A stretch of 37,741 nt of DNA from a virus (IMGVR_UViG_2541047834_000001), one strand, 5' to 3'; shown: positions 1 through 37,741, numbered from the stretch's first letter. Program-made: numbers and translations. Notes: generated from the letters alone by a model not told the origin.

Positions 1-17
1 ATTGAGTGGGAATGATT
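1..17. repeat. attL core: 17-bp direct repeat ATTGAGTGGGAATGATT, identical to 37725-37741
   Basis: Exact 17/17 identity between the first and last 17 nt of the window; integrase gene lies immediately inside. Confidence 0.8.
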
Positions 18-63
18 AACAGCTAACTCATAGCAACTCATTCCTATTCAGATACTAATTTAA

Positions 64-95
64 CCCTCTGTTTTTACAGAGGGTTTTTGTTTTTA
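64..95 (+). terminator. Rho-independent terminator-like hairpin (CCCTCTG-TTTTTA-CAGAGGG) followed by TTTTTGTTTTTA
   Basis: Perfect 7-bp stem with T-run directly 3' on + strand; lies between att core and integrase. Confidence 0.6.
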
Positions 96-150
96 TGTAT
101 TCATTTCTATTCACTCTACACCATATTTTTCGGCGGTACAGGTGACGGTA

Positions 151-165
151 TTACCTTAAAGGTAT
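151..165. promoter_or_regulatory. Operator-like palindrome TTACC-TTAAA-GGTAt upstream of int (imperfect)
   Basis: Member of the ATTACC-N5-GGTAAT family, one mismatch. Confidence 0.35.
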
Positions 166-207
166 ACTCTCATACCGTCATGAAAATGGTTTCTATACGG
201 GTGAATT

Positions 208-1458
208 GTGCTTACCGATACAAAATTAAAGAACCTCAAGCCACAGGACAAACTGTACAAAGTTTCCGATCGTGACGGGCTGTATGTAGCTGTGCTTACG
301 TCAGGTACGGTCTCGTTTCGCTATGACTACCGTATCAACGGTCGCCGCGAAACACTGGTAATCGGGCAGTATGGGCGTGACGGTATCAGCCTGGCAGAAG
401 CGCGAGAAGAACTGATTGCTGCAAAGAAGCTGCTTAAAGCAGGCCAGTCACCGGCTGCGGCTAAACGTGACGGTATCAAAAAGATTCGTGGTGCCGAGAC
501 GTTTGCGGTACATACCGACAGTTATATGAAACACGTCATCCTGGCTGACAGTACCCGCGCAATGAAACAGGCGGTGATCGACCGTGACATACTTCCGACT
601 CTTGGCAATAAAATGATGGCTGAAATTACCACATCGATGGTTCGTGATTTGTGTGACCGGATTGTCGAACGCGGTGGCCGGGCAACAGCAGTGCAGGCCA
701 GGGAGATCATCAGTAGCGTATACCGTCACGCCAATGACCGTGGTCATGGTTTGTTTAATCCTGCGGCTGACATTAAACCTTCGTCTATCGCCATATTTAA
801 ACCACGAGAGCGAACACTGACACCAGAAGAAATTGGCCTGTTCTTCCGCACGCTGGATGCCATTGGTGCTATGGGCACTATGAAAATGGCTTTAAAACTG
901 GTGCTTATCACTATGGTTCGTAAGGGCGAATTCACCAATGCAACGTGGGATGAAATAGATTTTAAAAAATGGACATGGACAATTCCTCCAGACCGCATGA
1001 AGGGAAGCCGGGCGCACGTTATTTACCTGCCTAAACAGGCACAGGATATATTGGTCGGGTTGCAGATGTGCGCTGGTGGAAGTGAATATCTGGTTCCTGG
1101 TCGTTACAATTTCCGGAAGCCATTATCTAATGCCGCGCTAAACTCTCTGATCGACAGAACGGTGAAAATAATAAATGAAGATGGTGAGCATATTCAGGAC
1201 TTCACTGTACATGATATGCGCCGTACAGCCAGTACGTTGTTGCATGAGGCTGGTTATCCTTCAGACTGGATTGAAAAGGCTCTGGCACATGAGCAGAAAG
1301 GTGTGCGCGCCGTATATAACAAAGCGGAATACGCCAGACAGCGCGCCTACATGTTGCAGCAGTGGGCCGATATGATTGATTCATGGATTGACGGGGAGCA
1401 TACGGATCTGATTCCGTTCTCCCCGTCGAAGTTTGAGAAGTGGATGGCGGGGGAATAA
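208..1458 (+). CDS. int: Tyrosine site-specific integrase (P4-type phage integrase family)
   Basis: 416-aa ORF next to attL; N-terminal arm-binding-like region (YVAV..FRYDYRINGRRE) and C-terminal catalytic region with HDMRRT (HxxR) and RAVYNKAEY (Tyr nucleophile region). Confidence 0.9.
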   Translation: MLTDTKLKNLKPQDKLYKVSDRDGLYVAVLTSGTVSFRYDYRINGRRETLVIGQYGRDGISLAEAREELIAAKKLLKAGQSPAAAKRDGIKKIRGAETFAVHTDSYMKHVILADSTRAMKQAVIDRDILPTLGNKMMAEITTSMVRDLCDRIVERGGRATAVQAREIISSVYRHANDRGHGLFNPAADIKPSSIAIFKPRERTLTPEEIGLFFRTLDAIGAMGTMKMALKLVLITMVRKGEFTNATWDEIDFKKWTWTIPPDRMKGSRAHVIYLPKQAQDILVGLQMCAGGSEYLVPGRYNFRKPLSNAALNSLIDRTVKIINEDGEHIQDFTVHDMRRTASTLLHEAGYPSDWIEKALAHEQKGVRAVYNKAEYARQRAYMLQQWADMIDSWIDGEHTDLIPFSPSKFEKWMAGE

Positions 1459-1461
1459 CGT

Positions 1462-1656
1462 TTAATAGTTCTGCTGATTTTCTTCCATCTCTGCTTCTGC
1501 TGCCAGTGATTCAATTTTGTTTTCGAATATTGCTGACAGTGTTGCAAATTCAGCATCAGTGACAGCGGGAATTGGAACAAACCTGATCCCGCTGTGTGCA
1601 AGCATGTTTGCAGTTTCAAGGCATTTTCTTAAATCTGCTGGTGATGCCCTGTTCAT
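1462..1656 (-). CDS. Hypothetical small protein (64 aa), last gene of leftward early operon
   Basis: ATG at 1656 overlaps the TGA stop of the upstream methyltransferase gene (ATGA coupling); convergent with int. Confidence 0.45.
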   Translation of the reverse strand: MNRASPADLRKCLETANMLAHSGIRFVPIPAVTDAEFATLSAIFENKIESLAAEAEMEENQQNY

Positions 1657-2704: not shown

Positions 2705-2953
2705 TCATGCAGCGTTGCTCACAGGACGATATACACGTTGCTGAACAGGAGGTTTTTTACCCTGGAACTCTGCCGGGCTTGCTGCCTGACGTTCATCAAG
2801 CCAACGCTCAACTTCGTCACGGTTCCATGCGCAGCGTTTGTCGGTGATATACCAGCGTTTAGGAAATTCCCCTGCGCGCTCCATACGGTCGATAGTGCTC
2901 CATGACAGTGGCACCACCGCCAGGAGTTCCTTCTTACCTAATGCACCTTTCAT
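2705..2953 (-). CDS. AlpA-family phage regulatory protein / excisionase (MerR-like HTH)
   Basis: 82 aa; LLAVVPLSWSTIDRMERAGEFPKRWYITDKRCAWNRDEVERWLDER matches the AlpA/Xis pattern. Confidence 0.8.
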   Translation of the reverse strand: MKGALGKKELLAVVPLSWSTIDRMERAGEFPKRWYITDKRCAWNRDEVERWLDERQAASPAEFQGKKPPVQQRVYRPVSNAA

Positions 2954-5306: not shown

Positions 5307-5891
5307 TTATTGTTTGTTTTTTTCGTTCTGGTTGATGACAAATTCAATGTAACTTTCGATCTTTGCTTTCTCGGTTTCGGGTAACAATGCGTAGCGCGAG
5401 CGGTCATAGTTGATGGTCGCAGGGTCGTGCGGGTGAATCAGTAATTCATAGCCGTGACGCCCGAATGCGGATGCAACATTCTCCAGGGTGGAAATGGAAA
5501 CGCTGACCTCATTGTTTAACAGGCGGCTGATTGTCACCTGGGCGACGCCGGATGCGCGGTGAAGTTTTCCCTGTGTTGAAAGGTCGCGGCTTTCGCTCAT
5601 CCAGCGTTCCAGGTTGTGAGCCGCCAGCTGACCAATGTCGCTTGGGCCGACAGGCTGAAAACCTTCCTGAGAAAGCGAGCGATCGATATCAAGCCAGTTA
5701 CGGGGTTTATTGGCGGCAGCTTCAATTTTTCGCGCAACCTGGTCGCCGATAACCTTCTTGCCAAGAGCCCAGCGGTTTACCAGATTTGCCTGAGTTCCAA
5801 GTTTTTCTGCCATCCGCGTCTGAACACCATTGAATTCACGGTCGATCAAGTCGTTGAGATTTTGCCTGCGGACGTCCTGGATACTTTTCAT
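5307..5891 (-). CDS. Putative immunity repressor with two HTH (XRE-like) domains
   Basis: 194 aa; two helix-turn-helix-like segments (TRMAEKLGTQANLVNRWALGKK and ASGVAQVTISRLLNNEVSVSISTLENVA); divergent from a Cro-like gene across an operator-rich intergenic region. Confidence 0.65.
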   Translation of the reverse strand: MKSIQDVRRQNLNDLIDREFNGVQTRMAEKLGTQANLVNRWALGKKVIGDQVARKIEAAANKPRNWLDIDRSLSQEGFQPVGPSDIGQLAAHNLERWMSESRDLSTQGKLHRASGVAQVTISRLLNNEVSVSISTLENVASAFGRHGYELLIHPHDPATINYDRSRYALLPETEKAKIESYIEFVINQNEKNKQ

Positions 5892-12839: not shown

Positions 12840-12880
12840 GAGTAGATTATGCATGATGAATTTGATGTGTTTTGAATACT

Positions 12881-12906
12881 GCCGCCAACTATGGCGGCTT
12901 TATTTT
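12881..12906 (+). terminator. Rho-independent terminator upstream of terminase genes (tR'-like)
   Basis: GCCGCCA-ACTA-TGGCGGC hairpin followed by TTTATTTT. Confidence 0.65.
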
Positions 12907-12917
12907 GCATGGTACTA

Positions 12918-12932
12918 TTACCACAACGGTAA
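12918..12932. promoter_or_regulatory. Operator-like palindrome TTACC-ACAAC-GGTAA before terminase genes
   Basis: Immediately 3' of terminator 12881-12906; followed by second TTACC and GGTtA. Confidence 0.45.
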
Positions 12933-12949
12933 CTATTACCACGGTGGTT

Positions 12950-18377: not shown

Positions 18378-18379
18378 TC

Positions 18380-20565: not shown

Positions 20566-20566
20566 G

Positions 20567-20911: not shown

Positions 20912-20928
20912 GCCTCGCGAATCAGACA

Positions 20929-20949
20929 AGGGGCTTCGGCCCCTTTATT
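20929..20949 (+). terminator. Rho-independent terminator (AGGGGC-TTCG-GCCCCT + TTTATT)
   Basis: GC-rich stem with stable TTCG tetraloop followed by a T-rich tract. Confidence 0.7.
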
Positions 20950-20961
20950 GCAGGAGTGTAT

Positions 20962-24825: not shown

Positions 24826-25370
24826 TGTGCGATCCGGTTATTGCTGGTGGCGCAATGCTCGCCATGAGTGGCATTCAGGCATACACCCAGTACCAACAGG
24901 GAAAGTATGCCTCGAAGGTTGCAGAAGCGAACGCAGATATAGCCACAGCTCAGGCAAATGATGCAATAAACAGAGGTAACGCTGAAGCTGAGCAACGACG
25001 CAGAGAGACCCGACAGCGGCTTGGTACACAGGCGGCGACAATGGGGGCTACCGGCGCTGATTTATCTACAGGTAACGCGCTGGATATATTTGGCGACACT
25101 GCCCAGTTTGGCGCTCTTGATTCGCTGACGACGGTGAATAACGCGCAACGCGAGGCTTACGGTTATCAGGTTCAGGCTGCCAACTATAAAGCAGAAGCCA
25201 GTTCAGCCCGTAAACAGGGGAATGTGGGAGCAGCAACAACATTGCTCACTGCGCCTCTGAAGGCATACGGTGCGTACCAGATGTTTGGTGGGACGTGGAG
25301 TCCGTTTACTCAAAGCACCCCTGCGCCAATCGGGGCAGCAGCAGGAACCAGATTACCCGGAGGATTATAA
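24825..25370 (+). CDS. Internal virion protein B-like (gp14 position), hypothetical
   Basis: 181 aa; Ala/Gln-rich. Confidence 0.5.
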   Translation: MCDPVIAGGAMLAMSGIQAYTQYQQGKYASKVAEANADIATAQANDAINRGNAEAEQRRRETRQRLGTQAATMGATGADLSTGNALDIFGDTAQFGALDSLTTVNNAQREAYGYQVQAANYKAEASSARKQGNVGAATTLLTAPLKAYGAYQMFGGTWSPFTQSTPAPIGAAAGTRLPGGL

Positions 25371-27883
25371 TGCCAGTCGTACCAACAGTATCCGGACGCC
25401 AGGTTGAGAGCCGTGGAGTTCAGTCAGCAGGCTTGCAGACGTTTTCTCAGCCAGGTATTGGTGATGCTTTTGTTCGGGCAGGGACAGAGGCAATTGATGT
25501 TTTGGGGCAGGCAAAACAGCGTGCCAATATCGCTCTGGCTCAGGAGGCATCTCTTAACCTCAGTCAGATAAGCAGTGATCTGCTGAATAACCCTGAAACA
25601 GGTTTGCTTAACCTGAAAGGGAAAAATGCTATTGGAAAAGGCCATGAGTATACGCAGCAGTTTGATGCTCAGGTCGAACAACTGGCTATGTCGCTGCCGG
25701 ATGAACAGGCTCGTAATGCTTTCATGCAGCAGGCGCAGCAGCAGCGCATTCAGTTCACTACGCAGGCCGGGCGGCACGAGATAGGGCAAATTAATGCCTA
25801 CGAAGAAGGTCAGTTTCAGGCGACGCTGCTGAACAATGGTAAAAATGCCGCAGCATTGTATGGCGACAATGCCGCATACGTATTGGCTAATAAGCAAACT
25901 TTCCAGCAAATTGAGGAGTACGGTGCTGCACATGGCTGGAGCGACGAGCAAATACAGGCCAAGAAAATCGAGTTTAAAGAGAAGGTTGCTGATGCAGCAT
26001 TGTCCCAGTGGTCGGCAAACAATGCGACCGCATTCATCCAAAGTAATGGCGAGTTAAGTGATACTGCTGCTGGAGCTCGCCGTGCTGTAACAGATAGTGG
26101 CTCTTCCGAGCGTGTCCGTGGCATACGCAACAATAACCCCGGAAATCTCGAATACAGCAAAACTAATCCGTGGGTAGGCCAGACCGGTGATGATGGTAGA
26201 TTTGCTAAATTCGAAACACCTGAACACGGGATTCGTGCATTAGGGCGGAACCTGATGTCGTATCAGCGGCAGGGTATTGATACCGTCAGCGAGATAATTA
26301 ATCGCTGGGCACCGCCTACTGATAAAAATGACACTATGTCGTATATCAAAGCAGTGTGCGAACAACTTGGCGTTTCTGCTGATGAGCCTCTCGATGCATC
26401 AAATCCTGATACCCTGAAGGCGCTTTGTGCAGCCATTATCCATCATGAGAACGGTAGCCAGCCATACAGTGATCAGAAGTTAACTGCTGGTGTCAGTGCA
26501 GCACTTGGTTTATCAACAATTCCAACCAACACCAAACGCTATACCGGTAATGCAGCATTCGATGCGGCATCTCCTGAGGCTCAGGCAAGTTTTATGCGGC
26601 AGGCGGATCAACTGCGTCGGCAGCAGCAGGCTGAATATAAAACGATGATTGACAGCCAGGTTCGCGATGCGACGGCTGCGTATATGCGTGGCGTTGAATT
26701 TCCTAACCCACCTGGTGAGGCTGATTTTATTGCAGCTTATGGAGTCAGAGAAGGAAACCTGCGATATACCGAGTTTAAGAATACGCAGATCGCCGGACAG
26801 TATATAGGCTCTTTCCGCAACATGCCGACAAGCAGCATTACAGCATATGTTGAGCAATTACGCCCGGATACTGGTGAGACAGGGGAGGGTTATGCGGCTC
26901 GCGCAGCTCTTTATGACAACGTTGTTTCGGCTGCAAATCAGGTGATAAAGCAGCGGCAGTCTGATCCTGTGCAGTTCTCTCTTGCCTCTGGACAGGCAAA
27001 GCCTATCGACATGAGCAATAAGGATAACTTTGGACAGAGCGTTGCCTTGCGTGCCGCTCAGGTCAGTGACCTTGCTAAGTCATATGGCACTCCACTGACG
27101 TTCTTTTCCAAAGACGAGGCCAATCAGATCGGTGTTTTTTTTCGTGATGCTCCAGTTTCCCAACAGGCAGCATATCTCGATACCATCAGGCAGAGCACTG
27201 GTGGTGGGCAGGTGTATATGTCAGCACTACAGCAGATCAGTGCCAACGCTCCATCTGCTGCCGTTGCCGGGATACTGATGGATAAGCCTGGTGGTATTTT
27301 GGCAGAAAAAAACTGGTTTAATCCGGATGTTTCCGTGTCTCCTGAAACCGCTGCGCAGACAATTCTTGCTGGCGCGGCGGCTCGTAAAGGTACTGATGAT
27401 GCGAAAGGTATTCCGATGCCTAAAGATGCTGATCTTCGCCTTGAGTTTTCTGACATGGTGAAGGATGCATTTGCTGGTGATGCTCAGGGGGCATCAATGG
27501 CATACGAGATCGCAAAGGACTATTACGCTGGTGTGATGGCGAAAAAAGGCGTGATATCAGGCGAAATTGACACTGATATCTGGAAACAGGCTGTTAACGT
27601 AGCTACAGGTGGCGTGCATGACTATAACGGAATGGGGAATGTCCTTTTGCCGTGGGGAATGTCTGCAGAGCAATTCGATAAGCAGGTTAATCAGGCTTGG
27701 AATGAACAAGTTGTCGGCTCCGGGATAAAAACACCGCCTGGTCAGTATGGTTTGCAAAGTTACGGCGATAGTCAGTACCTGGTGAAACTTGGTACTGGTT
27801 ATCTGCTGAAAGATGATGGTTCTCCCGTTGTTCTTAATCTGACACAGAAGCGTCAGAGATTCTCCGGAGATATTCCGCAATGA
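25370..27883 (+). CDS. Internal virion / ejection protein (gp15 position) with a conserved domain (GIRNNNPGNLEY...)
   Basis: About 837 aa from ATG at 25370 (TAATG overlap); ORF track extends to 25295. Confidence 0.65.
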   Translation: MPVVPTVSGRQVESRGVQSAGLQTFSQPGIGDAFVRAGTEAIDVLGQAKQRANIALAQEASLNLSQISSDLLNNPETGLLNLKGKNAIGKGHEYTQQFDAQVEQLAMSLPDEQARNAFMQQAQQQRIQFTTQAGRHEIGQINAYEEGQFQATLLNNGKNAAALYGDNAAYVLANKQTFQQIEEYGAAHGWSDEQIQAKKIEFKEKVADAALSQWSANNATAFIQSNGELSDTAAGARRAVTDSGSSERVRGIRNNNPGNLEYSKTNPWVGQTGDDGRFAKFETPEHGIRALGRNLMSYQRQGIDTVSEIINRWAPPTDKNDTMSYIKAVCEQLGVSADEPLDASNPDTLKALCAAIIHHENGSQPYSDQKLTAGVSAALGLSTIPTNTKRYTGNAAFDAASPEAQASFMRQADQLRRQQQAEYKTMIDSQVRDATAAYMRGVEFPNPPGEADFIAAYGVREGNLRYTEFKNTQIAGQYIGSFRNMPTSSITAYVEQLRPDTGETGEGYAARAALYDNVVSAANQVIKQRQSDPVQFSLASGQAKPIDMSNKDNFGQSVALRAAQVSDLAKSYGTPLTFFSKDEANQIGVFFRDAPVSQQAAYLDTIRQSTGGGQVYMSALQQISANAPSAAVAGILMDKPGGILAEKNWFNPDVSVSPETAAQTILAGAAARKGTDDAKGIPMPKDADLRLEFSDMVKDAFAGDAQGASMAYEIAKDYYAGVMAKKGVISGEIDTDIWKQAVNVATGGVHDYNGMGNVLLPWGMSAEQFDKQVNQAWNEQVVGSGIKTPPGQYGLQSYGDSQYLVKLGTGYLLKDDGSPVVLNLTQKRQRFSGDIPQ

Positions 27884-29682
27884 GTTACTTTGGCCTTAAT
27901 CCAGTAAACCAGAATCAGCAGCTTGACGAAGCAGCATCAAATCCAGCTGGCTTTAACAGCGATGTTGGTTTTTTCGACAATGCTGTAGGAGCGGCATTGT
28001 CTGGTTTGTACTCCGGGCTGGTGGCAAAGCCAGATCAGTTGCTATGGGCAGGGATGGATAAAATCGTATCCCCGATTGCTCAGTTTGTTAACGAAAACAC
28101 CTCGATCAATGACACTTCAGTTTCATACATTGCTGAGCAGAGAAAACTAGCAGAGCAGCAGGTTAAGCGGCTGACGCCTGATGCCGCGACAACCGGAACC
28201 GCCGGGCAGGTCCTTTATGGGTTGTTCGATATGGGCGGGCAGGCTGTTGTCGGTACAACGCTCGGTGGTCCGGTCGGAGGTGCTGCGGCGGTAACTTCTC
28301 TACAGGGTTTTTCTGAGTTTGAACGGCTGACAGCACAGGGTGTTGATTTCAGGACGGCGCAGGAAGCGGGATTAGTGCAGGGTATTACTGCTGGTGCCGG
28401 AACACTGATCCCTATGAGCCTCGGGTTACGTGCTGGTGGTGCACTGGCGGAAGGTGTGGCGGCTCAGCTTGCGCGGACGGGTGAAAGTTCAGTGCGACGC
28501 GCCGCAGCAACAGCAGTACGTGCAACGCCAGATATTGCCTATGCCGCAGGTACAAATATTGCGTTCGGTATGGCACAGCGTGGGCTTACTGCAAAAACGC
28601 TTCGTGATGGTGGCTATAGCGAAATGGCTAACCAGTATGATGTGTTGGATCGACAGGCAATTGCTATTGATGCTGTTCTTGGGGTGGCGTTTGGTGGTGT
28701 CGGCAGATTTATTAACTCTCGCGGCGAGTCTACAAGCGCACCAAATTTTTCACCAGTTGATGTTGATGCTGCACTGGCGGCGAATGCCGCTCATCATGCT
28801 GAAATTGATATTGCGCCCGGCGTGCCGATCAACGTGCTTTCGCGCAATTCTCACATTCAGGCTCTGCGAAAAGCTATGTCTGATGTTAGCCAGGGGAGAC
28901 CTGTAGACGTTGCCAGCATTGTTGAGTCTGCATCTTTCAGTGAAATTCCTGGGCGCAAGAGTCTGCTGTCTCAGGCAGTTAATGAGGCTCTGTCATCTGT
29001 AGATGATGGAGTAACGGCGCGCGCTATAGAAAATCGGTTGCTTGAAGAACAGGCCGCGCAGCTTTTGCCGCGTGGCGATAGACAGGTTTACCAGTCTGAA
29101 ATAGCTAATAGCCAACGAATTATTGAAAATCTCACTGAACAGCGCGCACAAATTCTTGCAGAAGAGCCAACCGGTAGCGGTAAATCTTTGTCTCGTGCTC
29201 GATCAGATAAACAGGTCAGACTTCGCGATATTGACCAACGAATCCGGCAGGCACAAGAACGCCTGGAATTTTCCCGTAACGCGTTGGCACCGCATGAGCC
29301 TGGCGGTCAGTTTTTTGAAGCTCGAGCAGAACTGGCACGGAGACAGCAGGCTGAAAGTGAACTTAATGCTCAGGCTGTTTCATTCTATAAAACAGCAGAG
29401 GTCAGGACGCCAGGCGAAGTAGCTCCTTTTGAGCCTGATAAAATATTGCAACAGGCAGAACAAAAAATGATGGCGGATCAGGCAGGAGATATTGATCTGC
29501 GCATAGCTGAAGACTCGCTGCTTGAATCACCTGACATGATAATCACCGTGCTGGATGATGATGGTAATCCACAATCGCGCAGCGCGCGTGAAGTACTGGA
29601 TGAAGCGAACAGGGAAAGTGAGCAGGCAATACAGGATTCCAGCCTGTTTGATGTCGCTGTGGCGTGTTTCTTGAGAGGTTAA
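27880..29682 (+). CDS. Internal virion / ejection protein (N-terminal part of gp16-like function)
   Basis: 600 aa; ATGA-coupled; Ala/Gly-rich N-terminus and coiled-coil C-terminus. Confidence 0.65.
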   Translation: MSYFGLNPVNQNQQLDEAASNPAGFNSDVGFFDNAVGAALSGLYSGLVAKPDQLLWAGMDKIVSPIAQFVNENTSINDTSVSYIAEQRKLAEQQVKRLTPDAATTGTAGQVLYGLFDMGGQAVVGTTLGGPVGGAAAVTSLQGFSEFERLTAQGVDFRTAQEAGLVQGITAGAGTLIPMSLGLRAGGALAEGVAAQLARTGESSVRRAAATAVRATPDIAYAAGTNIAFGMAQRGLTAKTLRDGGYSEMANQYDVLDRQAIAIDAVLGVAFGGVGRFINSRGESTSAPNFSPVDVDAALAANAAHHAEIDIAPGVPINVLSRNSHIQALRKAMSDVSQGRPVDVASIVESASFSEIPGRKSLLSQAVNEALSSVDDGVTARAIENRLLEEQAAQLLPRGDRQVYQSEIANSQRIIENLTEQRAQILAEEPTGSGKSLSRARSDKQVRLRDIDQRIRQAQERLEFSRNALAPHEPGGQFFEARAELARRQQAESELNAQAVSFYKTAEVRTPGEVAPFEPDKILQQAEQKMMADQAGDIDLRIAEDSLLESPDMIITVLDDDGNPQSRSAREVLDEANRESEQAIQDSSLFDVAVACFLRG

Positions 29683-29687
29683 ATTAA

Positions 29688-32162
29688 ATGAGACAGGAAT
29701 GTATACAAGCGGTCCAGCAGGCGGCGCAGCGCACGTTAACGGCGCGAGAAATACAGAACATTGAAGACCGCATTTATCGAAATATGCGCTCCATTGCTCG
29801 TGATGACCCGATGTCGTGGAGACAACTTTCCGAATCAGAGCGGCTATATCGTGCAGCACAATTGGCATCTGAAGAATTACAGCGAGAAGCGGCATTAAAG
29901 AAACGTCGTGTGGCCCTCACTATAGCCGCACGTCAGAGATTGGATAAATTTATCAATAGCTATCAAGGGGCTGATGGGAAACTTGGCGCTCTTAACCGTA
30001 CTATTGCTTTTAATGCAGACGGTAAATCGAATTTCCTCTCTGTTGAATCCAGAACAAAAGCCACTCGTGATTATGCATTGAGTCAATTGCAGGAGGCATT
30101 CGAAGCAGTTGATCCTCGCTTTTTTGGTCTGTTTGAAGATGAAGCGGGCGTACGTGACCTGGTATATGAAATGCGAGGGCAAAATACTGGCAATGCTAAA
30201 GCAAGAAAAGGTGCTAAGGCGTGGAGAGAAGTGACAGAGCTACTGCGCCGCCGGTTTAATGATGCTGGTGGGGACATTGGCTATCTCGAAAACTGGGGGC
30301 TCCCTCAACATCATTCTATGGAAAAGGTTGGGGCGGTATCAAAGGATAAGTGGGTTAGCGATGTTATAGGTAAGCTGGATCGCAAATATTATACCCGAGC
30401 CGATGGACAACTGATGAACGATGCCGAGTTGTCTGCATTTCTTGGAGAGGCTTATAACACGATCGCTACTGGTGGGCTGAATAAGCTTACTGATACCGGA
30501 ATGCGAATTTCCGGCGCACGTGCTAACCGGGGTAATGCATCACGACAGATACATTTCAAAGATGCAGATTCCTATCTGCAATATCAGCAACTTTATGGCG
30601 ATCGCTCTCTATGGGAAATCATGGTCGGTCACCTGGAAGGTATCAGTAAAGATATTGCACTGGTGGAAACATATGGCCCAAACCCCGATCATGTTTTCCG
30701 CTCTCTTCTTGATCAGGTGAAGGCAGAAACGGCAACAGCTAACCCGAGTAAAACCGGTAAAGTCGAGCGGCTGGCGAACAACACAGAGAATCTGTACAAC
30801 TTTATTTCCGGAAAGACACAGCCTGTAGCGAATCCGCACATCGCGCGATGGTCTGACAATATTCGCAACTGGCTGGTTGCCAGCAGACTCGGATCCGCGT
30901 TGCTGTCATCGTTCTCTGATCTTGGAACCATGTATCTGTCTGCGAAGGTTACCAACCTTCCAATGAACCAGTTATTCCGCAACCAGCTTGAAGCTATGGA
31001 CCCAACGAACCGTACAGAACTTGCGCGGGCGCGCCGCGCTGGTCTGGCGATGGAATCTCTACTTGGCAGCGTTAACCGCTGGGCGATGGATAATATGGGG
31101 CCGTCAGTGTCTCGTTGGGCGGCAACGGCGGTAATGCGTGCCAGTGGGCTTACAGCATGGTCAGATGCGCACAAGCGCGCCTATGGCGTAACCATGATGG
31201 GAAGCCTGGGAGAAGTAGTGTCACGAACACCAGACCTTCGTAGCCTCGATGACTCTGATTTTCGTATCCTGAAAAGCAAAGGGATTACTGACACAGACTG
31301 GAGCGTATGGAAGCTGGCGCAACAGGAGGACTGGGGGAACGGTAATAATACGATGCTGACACCGGAAAGCATTATGCGTATCCCTGATTCAGCAGTTAAA
31401 CATCTTGGTGAGCCTGAACGCGTGAAATTTGAGGCAATGCGTAAACTGCTCGGTGCCGTAACTGAAGAAGTTGATATGGCTGTTATTACACCGGGAGCAC
31501 GTGAGCAACTGATAACCGGTTCTGGTATTCAGCGTGGAACATGGAAAGGTGAATTAACGAGAAGTGTTTTCCTGTTTAAATCGTTCCCTATCTCGGTTGT
31601 TATGCGTCACTGGTCACGCGCTATGGGTATGCCGTCTGCTGGTGGGCGTGCGGCATATATTGCGACGTTTATTGCCAGTACGACCATTCTTGGCGCTTTG
31701 TCGCAACAACTTAACGACCTTGCGTCTGGTCGTAATCCTCGAGAGATGACAGGAGAAGATGCCGCAAAATTCTGGCTTGGTGCTCTACTGAAAGGTGGTG
31801 GTCTTGGCCTTTATGGTGACTTTTTATTGTCAGATCACACTAGGTACGGAAGCGGCGCGCTGGCGTCGATGCTTGGCCCGGTAGCTGGTCTGGTTGATGA
31901 CGTAGTGAAGATTGCTCAGGGCATACCGTTAAATGCTGTGGAAGGGAAGAGTGAGCAGACTGGTGGTGATCTGGTGAAGCTGGGGAAAGGTTTGATGCCA
32001 GGTGCGAATCTCTGGTACTTGAAGGCGGCTCTCGATCACATGATCTTTAATCAGATGCAGGAGTATTTTTCACCAGGCTATTTGCGTAAAATGGAGCAAC
32101 GTTCGAAGAAAGAGTTTAACCAGACATACTGGTGGCGACCTCAGGATGTCACTCCGCAATAA
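29688..32162 (+). CDS. Internal virion / ejection protein (gp16-like, large)
   Basis: 824 aa; synteny. Confidence 0.65.
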   Translation: MRQECIQAVQQAAQRTLTAREIQNIEDRIYRNMRSIARDDPMSWRQLSESERLYRAAQLASEELQREAALKKRRVALTIAARQRLDKFINSYQGADGKLGALNRTIAFNADGKSNFLSVESRTKATRDYALSQLQEAFEAVDPRFFGLFEDEAGVRDLVYEMRGQNTGNAKARKGAKAWREVTELLRRRFNDAGGDIGYLENWGLPQHHSMEKVGAVSKDKWVSDVIGKLDRKYYTRADGQLMNDAELSAFLGEAYNTIATGGLNKLTDTGMRISGARANRGNASRQIHFKDADSYLQYQQLYGDRSLWEIMVGHLEGISKDIALVETYGPNPDHVFRSLLDQVKAETATANPSKTGKVERLANNTENLYNFISGKTQPVANPHIARWSDNIRNWLVASRLGSALLSSFSDLGTMYLSAKVTNLPMNQLFRNQLEAMDPTNRTELARARRAGLAMESLLGSVNRWAMDNMGPSVSRWAATAVMRASGLTAWSDAHKRAYGVTMMGSLGEVVSRTPDLRSLDDSDFRILKSKGITDTDWSVWKLAQQEDWGNGNNTMLTPESIMRIPDSAVKHLGEPERVKFEAMRKLLGAVTEEVDMAVITPGAREQLITGSGIQRGTWKGELTRSVFLFKSFPISVVMRHWSRAMGMPSAGGRAAYIATFIASTTILGALSQQLNDLASGRNPREMTGEDAAKFWLGALLKGGGLGLYGDFLLSDHTRYGSGALASMLGPVAGLVDDVVKIAQGIPLNAVEGKSEQTGGDLVKLGKGLMPGANLWYLKAALDHMIFNQMQEYFSPGYLRKMEQRSKKEFNQTYWWRPQDVTPQ

Positions 32163-32171
32163 GGAAGTGTT

Positions 32172-32345
32172 GTGTTTTTAATTATTTTGAGTGTGATAAT
32201 TTCTGGTGGATTGTTATTTATTGACCGCTACAAATATTTTCTTAACCCTCAGACTCAAGCTATTTGCTGGTTCATCTTTGTTGTGCAGGGAGTAGTTCTT
32301 GTTGCAAGCCTTATTGAGGGGAGGCCTCTTATTTTTACTGGGTAA
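32172..32345 (+). CDS. Small hydrophobic membrane protein (57 aa), AT-rich moron
   Basis: GTG start 4 nt after AAGGAAG; VFLIILSVIISGGLLFIDRYKYFLNPQTQAICWFIFVVQGVVLVASLIEGRPLIFTG; about 30% GC; not in ORF track (size cutoff). Confidence 0.4.
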   Translation: MFLIILSVIISGGLLFIDRYKYFLNPQTQAICWFIFVVQGVVLVASLIEGRPLIFTG

Positions 32346-32357
32346 ATAGGTGACTAC

Positions 32358-32654
32358 ATGCAAGCTATAGGATTCATTGTTTATATCGTCGTTGGTCTTT
32401 TTCAGTTGGCAGCAATTATGGCTGGGCTTGAATCATGGTGGGGATTGCACTGGATAATTGCAGCCCCCATTGCTTTCATCGTGAGCTATATTCCATTTGT
32501 TGGAGCGATTGTTGGTATGGTTGGCGCTGTGGATGTATGGCGGTGGGAGTGGTGGCAGGCTGGCCTTCTCTTCTTTGGTGGGATCATCTTTGCTATTGTC
32601 TGCGGTGGAATGTCATCATTTTTCGAATGGCTATCATTCAGAAAAGGGACGTGA
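32358..32654 (+). CDS. Trp-rich integral membrane protein (98 aa, about 3 TM)
   Basis: Hydrophobic segments; stop embedded in GTGACATGTCAC palindrome; followed by terminator. Confidence 0.55.
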   Translation: MQAIGFIVYIVVGLFQLAAIMAGLESWWGLHWIIAAPIAFIVSYIPFVGAIVGMVGAVDVWRWEWWQAGLLFFGGIIFAIVCGGMSSFFEWLSFRKGT

Positions 32655-32662
32655 CATGTCAC
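32651..32662. promoter_or_regulatory. Perfect 12-bp palindrome GTGACATGTCAC (copy 3)
   Basis: Overlaps stop codon of membrane-protein gene; terminator hairpin starts 2 nt downstream. Confidence 0.45.
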
Positions 32663-32663
32663 A

Positions 32664-32688
32664 GGCCGCTTTCGCGGCCTTTAAATTT
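32664..32688 (+). terminator. Terminator hairpin GGCCGC-TTTC-GCGGCC + TTTAAATTT
   Basis: Perfect 6-bp GC stem with T-rich tail; between convergent genes. Confidence 0.55.
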
Positions 32689-32962
32689 ACCGGGTTTGTT
32701 TTCGTAATTGTTCGGCACAATAGTCGAGATGTGTTTGCAGATCCTGCATAGACATCTGTGAGCTGGTGACATAGTTAATCAGTGCAGTCAGTTCGGCAAG
32801 TGGGCCATCGACATTAAATCCATCCTTATCGAGATCCCGGAGTAATTTCATCAAGTGCGATCCCTCCACCAGTGACCTGACGCCTCCCGGCGTGTGAATC
32901 CTTTCGGTAAATCCGTCTTCCAGTGGATAGTGATACTGCTGCATCTTATCTTCTCCATGCAA
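32687..32962 (-). CDS. Hypothetical soluble protein (91 aa), reverse-oriented moron with own promoter region
   Basis: Only minus-strand gene in the structural module; upstream intergenic 32963-33139 contains an ATTACC-N5-GGTAAT site. Confidence 0.55.
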   Translation of the reverse strand: MHGEDKMQQYHYPLEDGFTERIHTPGGVRSLVEGSHLMKLLRDLDKDGFNVDGPLAELTALINYVTSSQMSMQDLQTHLDYCAEQLRKQTR

Positions 32963-33020
32963 TAACTGTATATTTATACAGTATCAAATAATTTGTTTGC
33001 TATCCAGCACGTTTTGCAAA

Positions 33021-33035
33021 TTACCCGAAAGGTAA
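33021..33035. promoter_or_regulatory. Operator-like palindrome ATTACC-CGAAA-GGTAAT between moron gene and tail fibre gene
   Basis: Perfect half-sites; followed at 33067 by TATGTGGTTTTTAA. Confidence 0.5.
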
Positions 33036-33139
33036 TATCTATTCGTATTCACAGTCTTTCTATCCATATGTGGTTTTTAAGGTAATAGAATAACCAGATA
33101 TGCGGCGCAACGGGTGCTGCGACTATCTGGAGATTTAAC

Positions 33140-35329
33140 ATGACGGTCTCAACCGAAGTTGACCACAACGAATACACCGGTAACGGCGTTACGACATCAT
33201 TTCCGTATACCTTCCGTATTTTCAAAAAAACCGACCTGGTTGTTCAGGTGTCTGACCTGAACGGGAACGTAACAGAATTGGTTCTGGATACCGGTTATAA
33301 GGTAACTGGAGCGGGCACTTATAGTGGCGGTGAAGTGGTTCTCCCGTCGCCGCTTGCTGCTGGATGGCGAATTACGATAGAGCGTGTGCTTGATGTGGTG
33401 CAGGAGACTGATCTTCGCAATCAGGGAAAATTTTTCCCCGAAGTTCATGAGGATGCATTTGACTACCTGACGATGCTGATCCAGCGATGTTTCGGGTGGT
33501 TCAGACGTGCATTGATGAAACCATCTTTGCTTGCAAAATATTACGATGCAAAGCAAAACAGAATTTCTAACCTTGCAGATCCATCACTTGAGCAGGACGC
33601 TGTAAATAATCGCTCAATGCGTAATTATGTCGATGCTGCAATCGCCGGGGTTGTTGGTGGTTTTGGTTGGTTTATACCGTCAGGAAGCGGGGCAAGACAA
33701 CGAACATTTCAAAGCAAAATGAGGGATATAATTTCTCCTTGTGATTACGAAGATAATATTTTTATGATTAAGGAGTTGATATCCAAAGGCAAAAATGCCG
33801 CTGTTTTTAACTCATATTATACTTTTGTTATTACTGTTGGCGAATGGGGTGATTACCCTACACTCAAAGATGCAATCATTGCAGCCCAGTCAATGAGACC
33901 TATGTGGGATGGTGGTAATGCTTTCTGCGAAATAAGAATTAAGACCGGGCATATTATCAACTATCAAATTGAATTCAGTTCAGGTGTTGATTTGTCTTGG
34001 ATTAAAATAACATCAGAAGACTCAGTGGTTTTCTCTGACACTCGTTTGTTTACTAAAATCGTTAGAACGTATTACGAATACAAGTATTTATTTTACATTT
34101 GCGATGCAGCAAAAAGTCCTGTATTTGCTATTCAGATCGAAGAAAATAGAGATGATAGCGATGTTTGTGCATTTATTGTAACTCAAAAAGCTGAACTTAA
34201 TTTCTATCCGTATTCAGGTGCTCGAAAGTTCTACGTTGGAATTCATGGTAGTTTTGGTGCAAAAATTAGTGCATATCATACCGGATGTGCTCCTGATGAG
34301 GAAAGTGTTGCTGCATATATGCCAGAAGGGTATTACGTATGTGATTTTTCTTATAGCAGATACTCTTCCCTGCAACTGGTAAATAATGTCAAGGCATCAA
34401 TGCCTGTAAGCAAGTTTGAACGGTGCACAGAGAGTACGGTTGCGTCAGTTAATTGTATTTATAATGTTAAAGCAGATTTTCAGGGGTCAAGTGCAAGCTA
34501 TTGTTATATAGGATGGAATGTAAGAGATGGTTCAAATGTTAATATACGCGACCATAAAACTATACATTGCTCATATCGTGGATTAACCTGCATTCATACA
34601 GCATATGTTGATGCAAGACGACATGACGTTGAAGAAAGTGATGCAGAAACAAGTGGTAAAGTCCTTGAACCAAATATTGAAAAAGGTTTTTATGGATGTG
34701 CACTTGGTGTGCGTATTGATGGTGCGGGTTGCGTTGATGTTGCTGGTAATGATATGCGCAATTGTGGAACAGCCGTTAATGCAGACACTGGTGCTGTTAT
34801 TTCAGGAAAGGCTGTAGATATCTCAGGGGCTGAGCTGGGATTTGATTGCCATGCAGGAGCATCTGTTAATTTTCCAAGGCTATGGGGTACAGATATAAAA
34901 AAATTAATGCACCTCCAAGATGGTGTAAGGTTTAACTCTAATATTTGTCATGTATTTGGTGCAAATCCCACAAAAGATATTAGATGGATTGATGTAGAGA
35001 GATCTGAAGCTTCTTTTATGAATGCAACGCTGGATGCAGATTCAGGATTTATTGCCGACTGTGGTAGTAGGATAACCATTGAAGGAAGTAAAGTTAAAAA
35101 CCAAACAATAAGAAGTTTTTTTGGATCATATGTGGCTATAAATAATACTGTTGCTGACAGAACTTATTCAGATATAGCCGATGTTCCGCAGTTGACTATT
35201 AGTGGAGGATCTTTTATTTCTGCTACAGGATATTCTAATTCTGACTCCAGCCCTCTGAGGTTGAGCACAACACGAAATACACTTGGCGTTGGAGGAGCTA
35301 TATTTTCAACCAATGGGGAAGTTTCATGA
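33140..35329 (+). CDS. Tail fibre / tailspike protein (conserved N-terminal adaptor, variable AT-rich distal domain)
   Basis: 729 aa; N-terminus (NEYTGNGVTTSFPYTF...NRISNLADPSLEQDAVNNRSMRNY) resembles podovirus tail-fibre anchors; distal portion about 35% GC. Confidence 0.75.
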   Translation: MTVSTEVDHNEYTGNGVTTSFPYTFRIFKKTDLVVQVSDLNGNVTELVLDTGYKVTGAGTYSGGEVVLPSPLAAGWRITIERVLDVVQETDLRNQGKFFPEVHEDAFDYLTMLIQRCFGWFRRALMKPSLLAKYYDAKQNRISNLADPSLEQDAVNNRSMRNYVDAAIAGVVGGFGWFIPSGSGARQRTFQSKMRDIISPCDYEDNIFMIKELISKGKNAAVFNSYYTFVITVGEWGDYPTLKDAIIAAQSMRPMWDGGNAFCEIRIKTGHIINYQIEFSSGVDLSWIKITSEDSVVFSDTRLFTKIVRTYYEYKYLFYICDAAKSPVFAIQIEENRDDSDVCAFIVTQKAELNFYPYSGARKFYVGIHGSFGAKISAYHTGCAPDEESVAAYMPEGYYVCDFSYSRYSSLQLVNNVKASMPVSKFERCTESTVASVNCIYNVKADFQGSSASYCYIGWNVRDGSNVNIRDHKTIHCSYRGLTCIHTAYVDARRHDVEESDAETSGKVLEPNIEKGFYGCALGVRIDGAGCVDVAGNDMRNCGTAVNADTGAVISGKAVDISGAELGFDCHAGASVNFPRLWGTDIKKLMHLQDGVRFNSNICHVFGANPTKDIRWIDVERSEASFMNATLDADSGFIADCGSRITIEGSKVKNQTIRSFFGSYVAINNTVADRTYSDIADVPQLTISGGSFISATGYSNSDSSPLRLSTTRNTLGVGGAIFSTNGEVS

Positions 35330-35650: not shown

Positions 35651-35752
35651 ATTCAACCTGCTCTTCACTGTTTGTTTCTTCAGAGTCATGTAAAAGGTGA
35701 GCTTTATTCTCGGCATGAAAAACAGGGAATTGACGATGTTAAAGTAACAAAA

Positions 35753-35766
35753 AACCATAAATGGTT
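35753..35766. promoter_or_regulatory. Palindrome AACCAT-AA-ATGGTT overlapping a -10-like ATAAAT
   Basis: Shares CCAT(T)AAATGG core with 35628-35650; TTGACG 17 bp upstream. Confidence 0.4.
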
Positions 35767-35824
35767 TATTATGCGTAATGCTTTACTGTTCAGGAGGTTG
35801 TTATGCATATAAACGGTGGAAAAC

Positions 35825-36229
35825 ATGTCAGCTCAACTAACCAGTGAAACTTTAAATCAGTGGCTTAGCATGAGTTCTCTGGCGGCGGTGATAGCAGGAG
35901 TTCCTCCTGAGGTTGCTTTGGGTGCTTTGGCTGGAGCGGTAATTTTTGTTACCTCTGCAGTAGAGTACCCCATCCGTCGCCGGGTGCTCCTGTCGATGCT
36001 CAGCTTTCTTTGCGGCCTTCTCTTTTACAAACCAGCAGCATCAATTCTTATCGGCATAGCCAGCCTGATCCCTACCATCACGCAGGACTCTTTTGAAAAA
36101 GGGATTGTTTTCTCTGCAGGCGCATTCGTGTCAGCAATTGTCGCTGTGCGTATTGGTATATGGCTCTATCACCGTTCCGATAATCCACGCGAGTTAATTC
36201 CGGGGAGAAAAGACGATGGTAACGCATGA
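35825..36229 (+). CDS. Membrane protein, possible holin/antiholin
   Basis: Multiple TM segments; directly upstream of and overlapping the next membrane gene and endolysin; start may be GTG 35816. Confidence 0.45.
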   Translation: MSAQLTSETLNQWLSMSSLAAVIAGVPPEVALGALAGAVIFVTSAVEYPIRRRVLLSMLSFLCGLLFYKPAASILIGIASLIPTITQDSFEKGIVFSAGAFVSAIVAVRIGIWLYHRSDNPRELIPGRKDDGNA

Positions 36230-36524
36230 GTTTTTTTTGCTTATCACCAATGCAGTTATTTGCACTGGCATAGCAATTCGCGTTGTCACATTCCGGCGTA
36301 ACGGCTCTCAACACCGAAGGTGGGGAGGATGGCTTGCTTATTTCCTGATTGTTGCTGCGGCCAGTATTCCTGTTCGTGTCGCCTATGCAATCTGGTTACG
36401 TACGCCAATGGCTGTGGATTTATCTGAGGTCATTATCAACGCTGTCATGCTGGCTGCGGTTATTAAAACGCGCGGTAACGTCGTTCAAATTTTTAAAGTA
36501 TCGAGGTCTAAACATGGAGATTAA
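36216..36524 (+). CDS. Putative holin (3 TM, charged C-terminus)
   Basis: 102 aa with three hydrophobic segments and basic tail, immediately upstream of the endolysin gene. Confidence 0.5.
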
Positions 36525-37143
36525 ACAATTCCAGCGAGCTGCTGGTATCAGCGAGGCACTGGCCGCACGCTGGTTCTCGCATATAACTTCTGCGATGAAA
36601 GAGTTTGGTATCAGCAAAGCAGAAGATCAGGCAATGTTTATTGCTCAAGTCGGGCATGAGTCTGGGAGCTTCACCAGGTTGCAGGAGAATTTCAACTACA
36701 GTGTCAGCGGACTGGCTAACTTCGTTCGGGCTGGGCGTCTCACTCAGGGGCAGGCTAATGCACTGGGGCGCCGTGCTGGTGAAGCACCATTGCCACTTGA
36801 GCGCCAGCGCGCGATCGCAAATCTGGTATACAGCAAACGCATGGGGAACAATGCCCCTGGTGATGGCTGGAATTACCGAGGGCGCGGACTTATCCAGATT
36901 ACCGGTTTGAATAACTATCGTGATTGCGGAAACGGTCTGAAGGTTGACCTGCTGGAGAGCCCTGAACTGCTGGCGCAGGACGAATATGCGGCTCGTAGCG
37001 CGGCGTGGTTCTTCGTCAGCAAAGGCTGCATGAAGTATACCGGCGATATTGTACGTGTAACTCTGATTATCAATGGTGGCAGAAACGGTATCGACGACCG
37101 GCGTGCGCGGTACATCACAGCAAGTAAGGTACTGGCGGTATGA
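36514..37143 (+). CDS. Endolysin, glycoside hydrolase family 19 (chitinase-like lysozyme)
   Basis: [12 protein letters not shown]...[16 protein letters not shown] motifs typical of GH19 endolysins; ATG at 36514. Confidence 0.8.
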
Positions 37144-37637
37144 TCTGGGCATTTGTAAAAGCATACCGTAAACAGTTACTTATCGTGGCGATGCTTGCTG
37201 TTCTGGTCATATCAGGAGTTGTTGCCTGGAATGTGCACGGCATCCGTCAGTACGATGCCGGGTATGCGCAGGCGAAGGAAGATCAGAAACAGGCTGATGA
37301 TAAGTTAAGGTCACAGCGTGAGCAGGAGAAAACACAAATTGAACGTGAAGCACAATCCCGTATCGATGCGGCGCGTGCTGATGCTGAGTATGCTAATTCC
37401 GCTGCTGACAGCATGCGCGCCGAGCTTGACAAAACCAGGCGGCTCGCCGAACACTATACCGGATCTTTCCCCCCTGGCACGCCAGCCAGCAAGGTCATCG
37501 GTGTGCTCGCCGACATGCTTGAAGAAAGCAACCGAGTTTACAACGCAACAGCAACTGAGGCTGAAAAGTATCGTATCGCAGGGGAATTCTGCGAGCAGCA
37601 ATACGATTCACTGAAGAAGCAAAAATCGTGGCACTGA
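37140..37637 (+). CDS. Rz-like i-spanin
   Basis: N-terminal TM ([18 protein letters not shown]) followed by charged coiled-coil; ATGA-coupled to endolysin. Confidence 0.7.
37366..37614 (+). CDS. Rz1-like o-spanin lipoprotein embedded in the +1 frame of Rz
   Basis: [20 protein letters not shown]: signal peptide with lipobox LTAC; Pro-rich mature part; entirely inside the Rz ORF. Confidence 0.6.
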   Translation: MRRVLMLSMLIPLLTACAPSLTKPGGSPNTIPDLSPLARQPARSSVCSPTCLKKATEFTTQQQLRLKSIVSQGNSASSNTIH

Positions 37638-37724
37638 TTTCCGGTGACGGTATATAAAACGGTATGGTGAAAATCAGGTTACAGAAAGTTGTTACCAGTC
37701 AATTGGTTATGCATGCCGTAAATA

Positions 37725-37741
37725 ATTGAGTGGGAATGATT
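37725..37741. repeat. attR core: 17-bp direct repeat identical to 1-17
   Basis: Exact repeat at window end. Confidence 0.8.

Follow-up and report, generated by a model that had tools for sequence, protein, structure and literature searches.

One Uetakevirus prophage, very probably integrated at the 3' end of guaA and cut at both attachment cores

Results

The DNA analysed here, which we call the window, is a 37,741-nt stretch that opens and closes with the same 17-bp sequence. Between the two copies lie a tyrosine integrase gene, placed just inside the left copy, minus-strand genes for a likely excisionase and a prophage repressor, the terminase, head, tail and tailspike genes, and a lysis cassette at the right end (Table 1). 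The original prediction had read this arrangement as one complete prophage, with the integrase immediately inside attL and the lysis genes next to the right-hand repeat, and both positions hold. With the core counted once, the prophage measures 37,724 bp.

Table 1. Coordinates of the features in the window
Feature	Position	Strand	Remarks
Left att core copy (attL)	1..17	+	Bases 1-15 are the last four guaA codons and the stop
Imperfect inverted repeat / RNA hairpin	3..50	+	Core 3-15 (TGAGTGGGAATGA) pairs with 38-50 (TCATTCCTATTCA); inner 4-bp hairpin 22-25/31-34
Intrinsic terminator	62..95	+	Stem 62-85, T-rich tail
Arm-type integrase repeat GTGACGGTAT, P' arm, predicted site	142..151	+	Decamer annotated as an integrase site in the epsilon15 record
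Inverted one-mismatch copy of GTGACGGTAT	172..181		
Tyrosine integrase, epsilon15 cluster, P4-like	208..1458	+	Pfam Arm-DNA-bind_3, Phage_int_M, Phage_integrase
AlpA-family small DNA-binding protein, likely excisionase	2705..2953	-	Pfam Phage_AlpA; epsilon15 homologue annotated "excisionase and transcriptional regulator"
Prophage repressor, double HTH	5307..5891	-	100% identical to the PAS61 repressor
Terminase small subunit (12872-13546) and large subunit (13543-15018)	12872..15018	+	
Portal, small protein, protease, major capsid protein	16405..20076	+	Portal 559 aa, the phiV10 length
Other head, tail and internal virion genes, then tailspike (33140-35329)	20128..35329	+	Full-length PAS61 matches, with two exceptions
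Lysis cassette: two holins, GH19 endolysin, DUF2514 Rz-like spanin	35816..37637	+	
Arm-type integrase repeat GTGACGGTAT, P arm, predicted site	37644..37653	+	
Palindrome CAATTGGTTATG-NNNNN-CGTAAATAATTG running into the core	37700..37728	+	
Right att core copy (attR)	37725..37741	+	In relatives, followed by the native guaA terminator, then yfgI

From the integrase to the lysis cassette (Rz), the gene order of the window follows that of the free phages PAS61 and phiV10 gene by gene; the window matches 43 of the 49 PAS61 proteins in the same order, nearly all of them at full length. The first 25 kb align with phiv142-3 and PAS61 at ~97.6% identity and 86-87% coverage. The structural genes are full length by comparison with PAS61; the two exceptions to full-length matching between 20128 and 35329 are an internal virion protein with a divergent middle (25295-27883) and the receptor-binding part of the tailspike. 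Overall, the genome-wide nucleotide similarity, the shared gene order and a set of modules that is the same as in phiV10 place the window in Uetakevirus. Set against ZX5, phiV10 and epsilon15, it has the same core (attgagtgggaatgatt), the same 190-bp distance from core to integrase, the same post-core terminator, GTGACGGTAT arms and gene order, and the same integrase, which is 98.8% identical to that of the group member PAS61; only cargo and variable parts differ.

Both copies of the core, ATTGAGTGGGAATGATT, lie on the plus strand without mismatches, and a search of the whole window allowing two mismatches found no further copy. Shuffled versions of the window gave a mean of 0.02 matches, and two copies arose in 0 of 100 shuffles. 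In related E. coli genomes the core is the end of guaA: it reads ATT GAG TGG GAA TGA, encoding I-E-W-E-stop, plus TT, the translation ends in ...PATIEWE*, and in strain F719 the guaA coding sequence ends at the position of window base 15. A scan of both window ends found no tRNA or tmRNA, and no Rfam family matched there at its gathering score, with positions 1-260 giving only sub-threshold matches driven by the terminator. The core thus lacks the character of a tRNA, tmRNA or sRNA target, and the integration target is the 3' end of the protein-coding gene guaA, in keeping with the earlier expectation of a non-tRNA site. Because the stop codon lies inside the core, guaA is left intact after integration, and the integrase gene points in the same direction as guaA.

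The window itself carries no flanks, and we therefore inferred the host junctions from relatives, using strain F719 for the left side and strain 118UI for the right. At attL of F719 the host base to the left of the core is C where the phage has A, and at attR of 118UI the host base to the right is T where the phage has A; since host and phage mismatch at both -1 and +1, the repeat is exactly 17 bp and no longer. Beyond the core, 118UI has the host terminator, an IS200C and yfgI. The source of the window would accordingly have guaA on its left flank and, on its right, TGACCCTGCAC...CCCTCTGTTACTACAGAGGG followed by yfgI. A search of 5426 complete E. coli genomes found no exact source of the window, and the best matches to the two ends come from different strains, F719 on the left (99.7%) and GPEC1186 on the right (99.9%).

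We reconstructed attP by joining the right end of the window to its left end through one copy of the core. The product aligns without gaps to the corresponding region of PAS61 (1017 nt, 94.7%) and of phiV10 (616 nt spanning the core, 96.8%), and with two gaps to that of epsilon15 (617 nt, 84%), which bears out the claim that the prophage is complete. The 17-mer occurs once each in the PAS61 and phiV10 genomes. The integrase reading frame begins 190 nt past the left core, and its three Pfam domains all score above cut-off (PF13356, 72 bits; PF22022, 46 bits; PF00589, 71 bits); the motifs H-D-M-R and A-L-A-H ... V-Y-N-K-A-E-Y can be read within 1200-1340. This three-domain architecture, together with insertion at the guaA 3' end with the published core, assigns the enzyme to the epsilon15 cluster of integrases.

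Repeated arm-type sites flank the core on both sides, as they do in a lambda-type attP. Five exact copies of GTGACGGTAT are present, at 37644, 142, 377, 467 and 720 (the last on the minus strand), all within 730 nt of a core, and three of them fall inside the integrase gene (377-386, 467-476 and 720-729). Allowing up to one mismatch, ~1.7 matches would be expected in the whole window, and the observed count was reached in 0 of 100 shuffles. The 5-nt centre of the palindrome that runs into the right core (37712-37716) is hypervariable among relatives, and the corresponding part of the epsilon15 record carries annotated IHF sites. As in lambda, then, there are arm-type repeats around a short core, a separate small excisionase gene and IHF sites annotated in a relative, and we infer that the attP would be of the lambda type. 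Recombination between attP and attB would have duplicated the core, with strand exchange predicted to fall within the sub-sequence GAGTGGGAATGAT.

The hairpin that had been predicted at 64-95 was recovered as a stem of 10 bp (62-85) with TTTGTTTTT after it (-15.9 kcal/mol, z = -6.0), a G+C-rich stem-loop with a U-tract that has the structure of an intrinsic terminator. In the lysogen, the phage DNA after the guaA stop codon consists of a 46-nt spacer and then this terminator, whose stem (CCCTCTGT/ACAGAGGG) has the same sequence as that of the native guaA terminator, which now lies at attR. At the other end, the lysis cassette stops 87 nt before the right core. We found no terminator-like site between 37637 and 37725, so that the native guaA terminator beyond attR is the first one after the lysis operon; in the free phage, that first place after the lysis genes belongs to the terminator at 62-95, ahead of int. 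The phage terminator would end guaBA transcription and shield int from read-through, and upon integration guaBA and the phage lysis operon would in practice exchange terminators that are nearly identical. On this comparison, the proposal that the phage supplies a replacement 3' end and terminator for its target stands, with a spacer that is phage-borne.

We give a little under even odds to a different emphasis: the terminator at 62-95 may be primarily a phage device that ends the late/lysis operon and insulates int, its service to guaA being a by-product. In the free phage it is the sole terminator on the way from the Rz-like gene to int, the GenBank records for phiV10 and for epsilon15 label the equivalent element after the core simply as a phage terminator, and the phage stem is conserved even in L030, L013 and L044, where the host guaA terminator at attR is of a different type (GCCCGCG...CGCGGGC). 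However, the phage stem is base for base the native guaA terminator stem of Escherichia, Serratia, Buttiauxella, Dryocola and others, and in integrase-free Citrobacter the whole spacer matches the phage too, which points to descent from a guaA 3' UTR and not to independent invention. The two roles are also mutually compatible. The terminator swap, together with a foreign and strongly structured guaA 3' UTR in E. coli, is the one item here that is perhaps worth a short follow-up.

That structure begins within the core. The hairpin at 3-50 has a folding energy of -18.8 kcal/mol (z = -4.9) and includes three G.U pairs, which restricts good folding to the guaA-sense strand; over 21 variants, 93% of cells retain the pairing. 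A covariation test of this core/P'-arm hairpin gave no compensatory changes, with the shuffle control equal to the observed value; the test is uninformative here, since the coding sequence that forms the 5' arm does not vary. E. coli's own guaA does not have the core hairpin, and the segment from core to terminator resembles the guaA 3' UTR of integrase-free Citrobacter. One reading, which we consider unlikely, is that window positions 1-95 are a transplanted native enterobacterial guaA 3' UTR, including a strand-specific hairpin that locks the stop codon (3-15) against 38-50. Were it true, the guaBA mRNA of E. coli lysogens would acquire a new 3' end upon integration, lysis-gene transcripts of the free phage would finish in this same structure, and the structure might serve mRNA processing or stability in both settings; the integrase-free Citrobacter segment would then point to the host lineage that donated the phage arm. 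A literature search for a guaA 3'-UTR sRNA in enterobacteria turned up no paper.

The phage-like guaA 3' UTR of integrase-free Citrobacter could instead be the scar of a lost prophage, left by recombination between the near-identical phage and host terminators, and not the native source. We consider this less likely than not. The integrase-free Citrobacter spacers fall within phage diversity (over the variable 46 nt, 87% to epsilon15 and 85% to Citrobacter lysogens), and their similarity to the phage ends exactly at the terminator T-tract. Against a scar, the expected chimera of guaA, phage spacer, terminator and yfgI has no full-length, high-identity match in the 5426 E. coli genomes, where the best full-length matches to the chimera query are ordinary empty sites at 86%. 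Moreover, Enterobacter sp. R1, Atlantibacter, Buttiauxella and Dryocola carry graded, partly phage-like spacers with the host genes yfgG and pdeF directly after them, a pattern that resembles vertical descent.

Discussion

We read the window as the integrated genome of a single temperate podovirus in the genus Uetakevirus (the epsilon15/phiV10 group), placed at the 3' end of guaA and cut at both att cores, and put the probability of this reading at about 0.93. The site is well defined in hosts: 4571 of the 5426 complete E. coli genomes, K-12 included, have an uninterrupted attB, as the original prediction required of a true core. Some 16% of complete E. coli genomes have an occupied guaA 3' end, and roughly two in three of these carry this integrase type; the integrase stands beside guaA in 534-554 genomes (~10% of complete E. 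coli).

It is very unlikely that the window is a single core-to-core segment from prophages arrayed in tandem, or from a concatemer in replication, with at least one end being an attP-like junction to another copy. Such arrangements do occur, in that the right core of GPEC1186, the genome closest to the right end, leads directly into a second identical prophage copy, with the same protein accessions in both. However, the integrase has a median of one place per genome, with guaA directly to its left in 537 records, and the sequence of the core-to-core unit is the same either way, leaving the phage and its att site unchanged. We reject outright an origin of the 17-bp repeat by chance or by transposon-type target-site duplication, given the shuffle control and given that free phage genomes have a single 17-mer, located between Rz and int, and empty host sites likewise a single one, which identifies conservative site-specific recombination and not target duplication.

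As a discovery, an integrated prophage at this position has little importance; what can be said for the original prediction is that its inference from raw sequence was right. Earlier publications already cover att site, core sequence and phage group alike, and the finding is correct but ordinary. The attP of ZX5 is exactly this 17-mer, located 190 bp 5' of int, its attB lies at the guaA 3' end, and integration there was verified by PCR and Sanger sequencing (PMC9782041); the same paper states that this site had been shown for phiV10 and epsilon15 (PMC9782041). The epsilon15 integrase cluster has been placed at the guaA 3' flank (PMC8138268), and TL-2011b has been located in guaA (PMC3293862). 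For annotation, the window can confidently be labelled a guaA-integrated Uetakevirus prophage.

Elements of another kind use the same target. Islands of the GIsul2/CMGI-3 cluster also insert at the guaA 3' end by means of a tyrosine integrase, with the E. coli K-12 attB as the empty site, and the core proposed for GIsul2-type elements, GAGTGGGA, equals bases 4-11 of the 17-mer. Unlike the present prophage, these are resistance-gene islands and not phages, and their att sites are 19 bp long, with only the 8-bp centre shared.

In phage 21 and e14, which target icd, and in the tRNA-targeting P4 and P22, a phage-borne 3' end of the gene keeps the target functional. Here, by comparison, only 15 coding bases are duplicated, and the replacement consists mainly of an untranslated tail and a terminator. 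The arrangement also recalls lambda sib, in that a strong hairpin adjoins att and changes its position relative to the genes upon integration. In contrast to lambda, int lies downstream of attP and not upstream, and for this reason a lambda-style sib effect on the int mRNA is impossible in the same geometry. RNase III cleavage appears as an annotation only, in the epsilon15 record.

The window is the shortest among the group members compared. Relative to other Uetakevirus members it is without the polymerase-type conversion genes, the O-antigen acetylase and the Bro-N anti-repressor, the last two of which occupy variable slots in PAS61 and phiV10, and it differs in the receptor-binding part of the tailspike and in some early genes at 8764-11940. 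Judged by gene content, the prophage may be poorly inducible if induction requires the anti-repressor.

Two candidate defects were considered and rejected. A pseudogene at 32690-33067 on the minus strand was discarded, RefSeq relatives annotating a shorter 85-aa gene there (32687-32944). Similarly, a truncated portal was suspected by comparison with the 735-aa portal of PAS61 and was ruled out, the phiV10 portal also being 559 aa long. The PAS61 portal matches the window in two segments that overlap, a pattern suggestive of an internal duplication within the PAS61 protein.

The attachment core is the 3′ end of guaA

We searched the whole window for ATTGAGTGGGAATGATT and found two exact copies, one at each end (Table), with no third copy in the window even when two mismatches were allowed. 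Dinucleotide-preserving shuffles gave a mean of 0.02 matches to the 17-mer, and two copies occurred in 0 of 100 shuffles. The left 2.5 kb of the window is matched in 554 of 5426 complete E. coli genomes, nearly always with the GMP synthase gene, guaA, annotated directly to its left. In E. coli strain F719, the guaA coding sequence ends at window base 15 and the junction reads ...ACC ATT GAG TGG GAA TGA TT (translation ...PATIEWE*); the core therefore comprises the four final guaA codons, the stop codon, and the next two bases. The base to the left of the core is C in the host versus A in the phage, and the base to the right is T in the host versus A in the phage, so that the identity extends over exactly 17 bp. 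The original prediction described a complete prophage bounded by a perfect, non-tRNA direct repeat, with the integrase just interior to the left copy and lysis genes at the right end, probably inserted at the 3′ end of a protein-coding gene or sRNA; that description is accurate, its observations are confirmed, and its interpretation is supported, with a protein-coding gene as the target.

In E. coli strain 118UI, the right end of a related prophage is followed by TGACCCTGCACTATGAATGAACAAAACCCTCTGTTACTACAGAGGGTTTTTT, then by an IS200C, and then by the usual guaA neighbors yfgI, yfgH, yfgG, and pdeF. The IS200C copy (6290-6900 of the locus) lies downstream of attR, directly after the native guaA terminator, and shows further mobile-element traffic at this locus.

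These assignments are correct and already known, given the published core, the published placement in guaA, and an annotated terminator; the main claim is nothing new. For the related phage ZX5, attgagtgggaatgatt was reported as the attP core, which lies 190 bp 5′ of the integrase, with attB at the guaA 3′ end and with attB, attL, and attR confirmed by PCR and Sanger sequencing (PMC9782041). The same paper states that this sequence had been shown to be the attP of phiV10 and epsilon15, and phage TL-2011b was located in guaA (PMC3293862).

Positions of features in the window
Feature	Position	Remark
attL core	1-17	
Core hairpin	3-50	stem 3-15/38-50
Terminator	62-95	stem 62-85, T-rich tail to 95
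Exact GTGACGGTAT copies	37644, 142, 377, 467, 720 (-)	
Inverted GTGACGGTAT copy	172	one mismatch
Integrase ORF	from 208	
AlpA-family gene	2705-2953	epsilon15 homologue annotated as excisionase
tRNA-Arg	15682-15758 (-)	anticodon UCU (rare AGA codon); 73 bits to Rfam tRNA
Portal gene	16405-18084	559 aa
Variable gene slots	32172-33140; 35326-35816	small proteins of unknown function: phrog_3075, phrog_450, phrog_1443
Last lysis gene	ends 37637	
Palindrome	37700-37728	CAATTGGTTATG-NNNNN-CGTAAATAATTG; centre 37712-37716
attR core	37725-37741	

The window is a phage genome opened at attP

The first 25 kb of the window align at ~97.5% identity, over 79-87% of their length, with the free phages phiv142-3, vB_EcoP_PAS61, HEMP4, ZX5, and TL-2011b; they also match phiV10 and, more distantly, epsilon15-like Salmonella phages. 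All annotated members of this matched set belong to the genus Uetakevirus. We translated each PAS61 gene and searched it against the window, which revealed the same gene order throughout: integrase, methyltransferase, AlpA-type regulator, RecT, exonuclease, repressor, Cro-side genes, and DnaT-like and P-like replication proteins, followed by terminase, portal, protease, capsid, tail and internal proteins, tailspike, two holins, endolysin, and an Rz-like protein. We then rebuilt attP by joining the window’s last 517 bases to bases 18-517. The rebuilt site aligns with PAS61 gaplessly over all 1017 nt (94.7% identity), and across the core with phiV10 at 96.8% (gapless) and with epsilon15 at 84% (two gaps). 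PAS61 and phiV10 each carry the 17-mer once per genome, between the Rz-like gene and int. The window is one complete prophage, a phage genome opened at attP, as expected of an attL-to-attR segment.

Differences from relatives fall in the usual variable slots. Unlike PAS61 and phiV10, the window lacks an O-antigen acetylase and a Bro-N anti-repressor; unlike the related prophage of E. coli strain GPEC1186, it lacks a YafO toxin; and the distal part of the tailspike and small early genes also differ. The repressor has no Pfam match to a peptidase domain, which puts inducibility without the anti-repressor in question.

The window’s portal protein has the same length as that of phiV10. The PAS61 portal (15937-18144 in that genome), annotated at 735 aa, is the exception: it aligns with the window portal as two segments that overlap (residues 1-293 and 250-735), suggesting an internal duplication in PAS61. 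The tRNA-Arg gene, on the opposite strand, separates the terminase genes from the portal gene; it also occurs in the GPEC1186 relative, and the phiV10 record has no annotated tRNA.

Integration is predicted to exchange near-identical terminators

The predicted terminator hairpin after the left core is present, and the phiV10 and epsilon15 records already annotate it. guaA and int run in the same direction. Integration leaves guaA with its own stop codon followed by a phage-borne 46-nt spacer and this terminator, which is expected to stop guaBA transcripts before they reach int. No terminator occurs in the window from the Rz-like gene to the right core, so that the same terminator would close the lysis operon in the free phage; in a lysogen, the native guaA terminator on the far side of attR would take over that role. 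The phage and native terminators share the same stem, CCCTCTGT/ACAGAGGG, and differ in the loop alone, suggesting that the guaBA and lysis operons swap near-identical terminators on integration and that the phage supplies guaA with a replacement.

Core bases 3-15, including the guaA stop codon, can also base-pair with bases 38-50, an imperfect inverted copy, to form a stem of 13 bp that encloses a 4-bp hairpin (-18.8 kcal/mol, z = -4.9). With three G.U pairs in the stem, the hairpin folds well only in guaA-sense RNA. Across 21 arm variants, 93% of cells retain the pairing; the 5′ arm, being invariant coding sequence, leaves no room for covariation. Members of the phage family and integrase-free Citrobacter conserve the hairpin; nothing equivalent exists in the guaA tail native to E. 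coli. In the epsilon15 record, an RNase III site is marked over part of this region, and we found no discussion of the hairpin in the literature searched. We regard it as a lead only, and consider it unlikely that the stretch from core to terminator is a transplanted copy of a guaA 3′ UTR whose RNA hairpin is functional.

Integrase binding sites and proposed strand exchange

The integrase contains Arm-DNA-binding, central, and catalytic domains, as in P4-like tyrosine recombinases. All exact copies of the decamer GTGACGGTAT are found no more than 730 nt from a core, and none of the shuffles came near this number. The epsilon15 GenBank record annotates GTGACGGTAT as an integrase binding site, with IHF sites around the core. 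These features are consistent with a lambda-type intasome that would exchange strands inside the 17-bp identity. The exchange most likely occurs within GAGTGGGAATGAT, judging from its invariance in lysogens of other genera and from the core proposed for GIsul2 islands, which use the same host site (GAGTGGGA, contained in GAGTGGGAATGAT).

A palindrome to the left of the right core overlaps the first four core bases. Its centre reads CATGC here and takes 32 different pentamers among 97 related prophages, with invariant flanks. Another patch of variation is found ~38-60 nt to the left of the core.

Occupancy of the guaA site in E. coli

A 186-nt empty-site probe (guaA end, core, and host terminator) matched without interruption in 4571 of 5426 genomes, DH5alpha and MG1655 among them, confirming that uninfected relatives hold an intact attB. 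The site is split in the remaining 855, of which about 534-554 carry this integrase type; ~300 genomes must therefore hold other elements there, with GIsul2-type islands as one published candidate. GPEC1186 (NZ_CM142789.1 4396000-4445999) carries a related 41.7-kb prophage twice, as identical head-to-tail copies, with the second integrase beginning right after the first copy’s right core and the same protein accessions in both. This arrangement reflects either two lysogenic copies in tandem at guaA or replicating phage DNA that was assembled in this form.

Origin of the core-to-terminator segment

A search of one genome for each bacterial species, requiring a guaA end with this terminator stem after it, identified 33 loci. 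Prophage-free Escherichia, Serratia, Buttiauxella, Dryocola, Klebsiella indica, and others have this stem as that of their native guaA terminator. Two Citrobacter genomes lack an integrase at guaA and have all 48 nt from stop codon to terminator phage-like: C. amalonaticus (host genes for a regulator, yfgG, and pdeF downstream) and Citrobacter sp. NCU1 (a torC-like host cytochrome gene downstream). The variable part of the Citrobacter spacer is 87% identical to epsilon15, and the likeness ends at the T-tract. The Atlantibacter hermannii spacer is phage-like at its start (631 nt of downstream contig covered), and Enterobacter sp. R1 shares the spacer in part only. We favor, without regarding the matter as settled, a model in which the phage acquired this arm by capture from a host guaA UTR of this kind. 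Alternatively, the phage-like UTR in Citrobacter hosts could be the scar of a lost prophage, but no such scar occurs among the 5426 E. coli genomes, which argues for capture.

In a Pseudescherichia MAG, three adjacent AT-rich ORFs (212, 411, and 338 aa) occupy the interval ~0.7-3.5 kb past guaA, between its terminator and yfgG. They are on the opposite strand, have no neighboring integrase, and resemble a small inserted island that may be a defence system. Two Gram-positive records, Brevibacterium sp. UMB10442 (a 336-bp contig identical to the E. coli guaA site) and Vagococcus sp. WN89Y, show an enterobacterial guaA end and terminator and are probably contaminating contigs.
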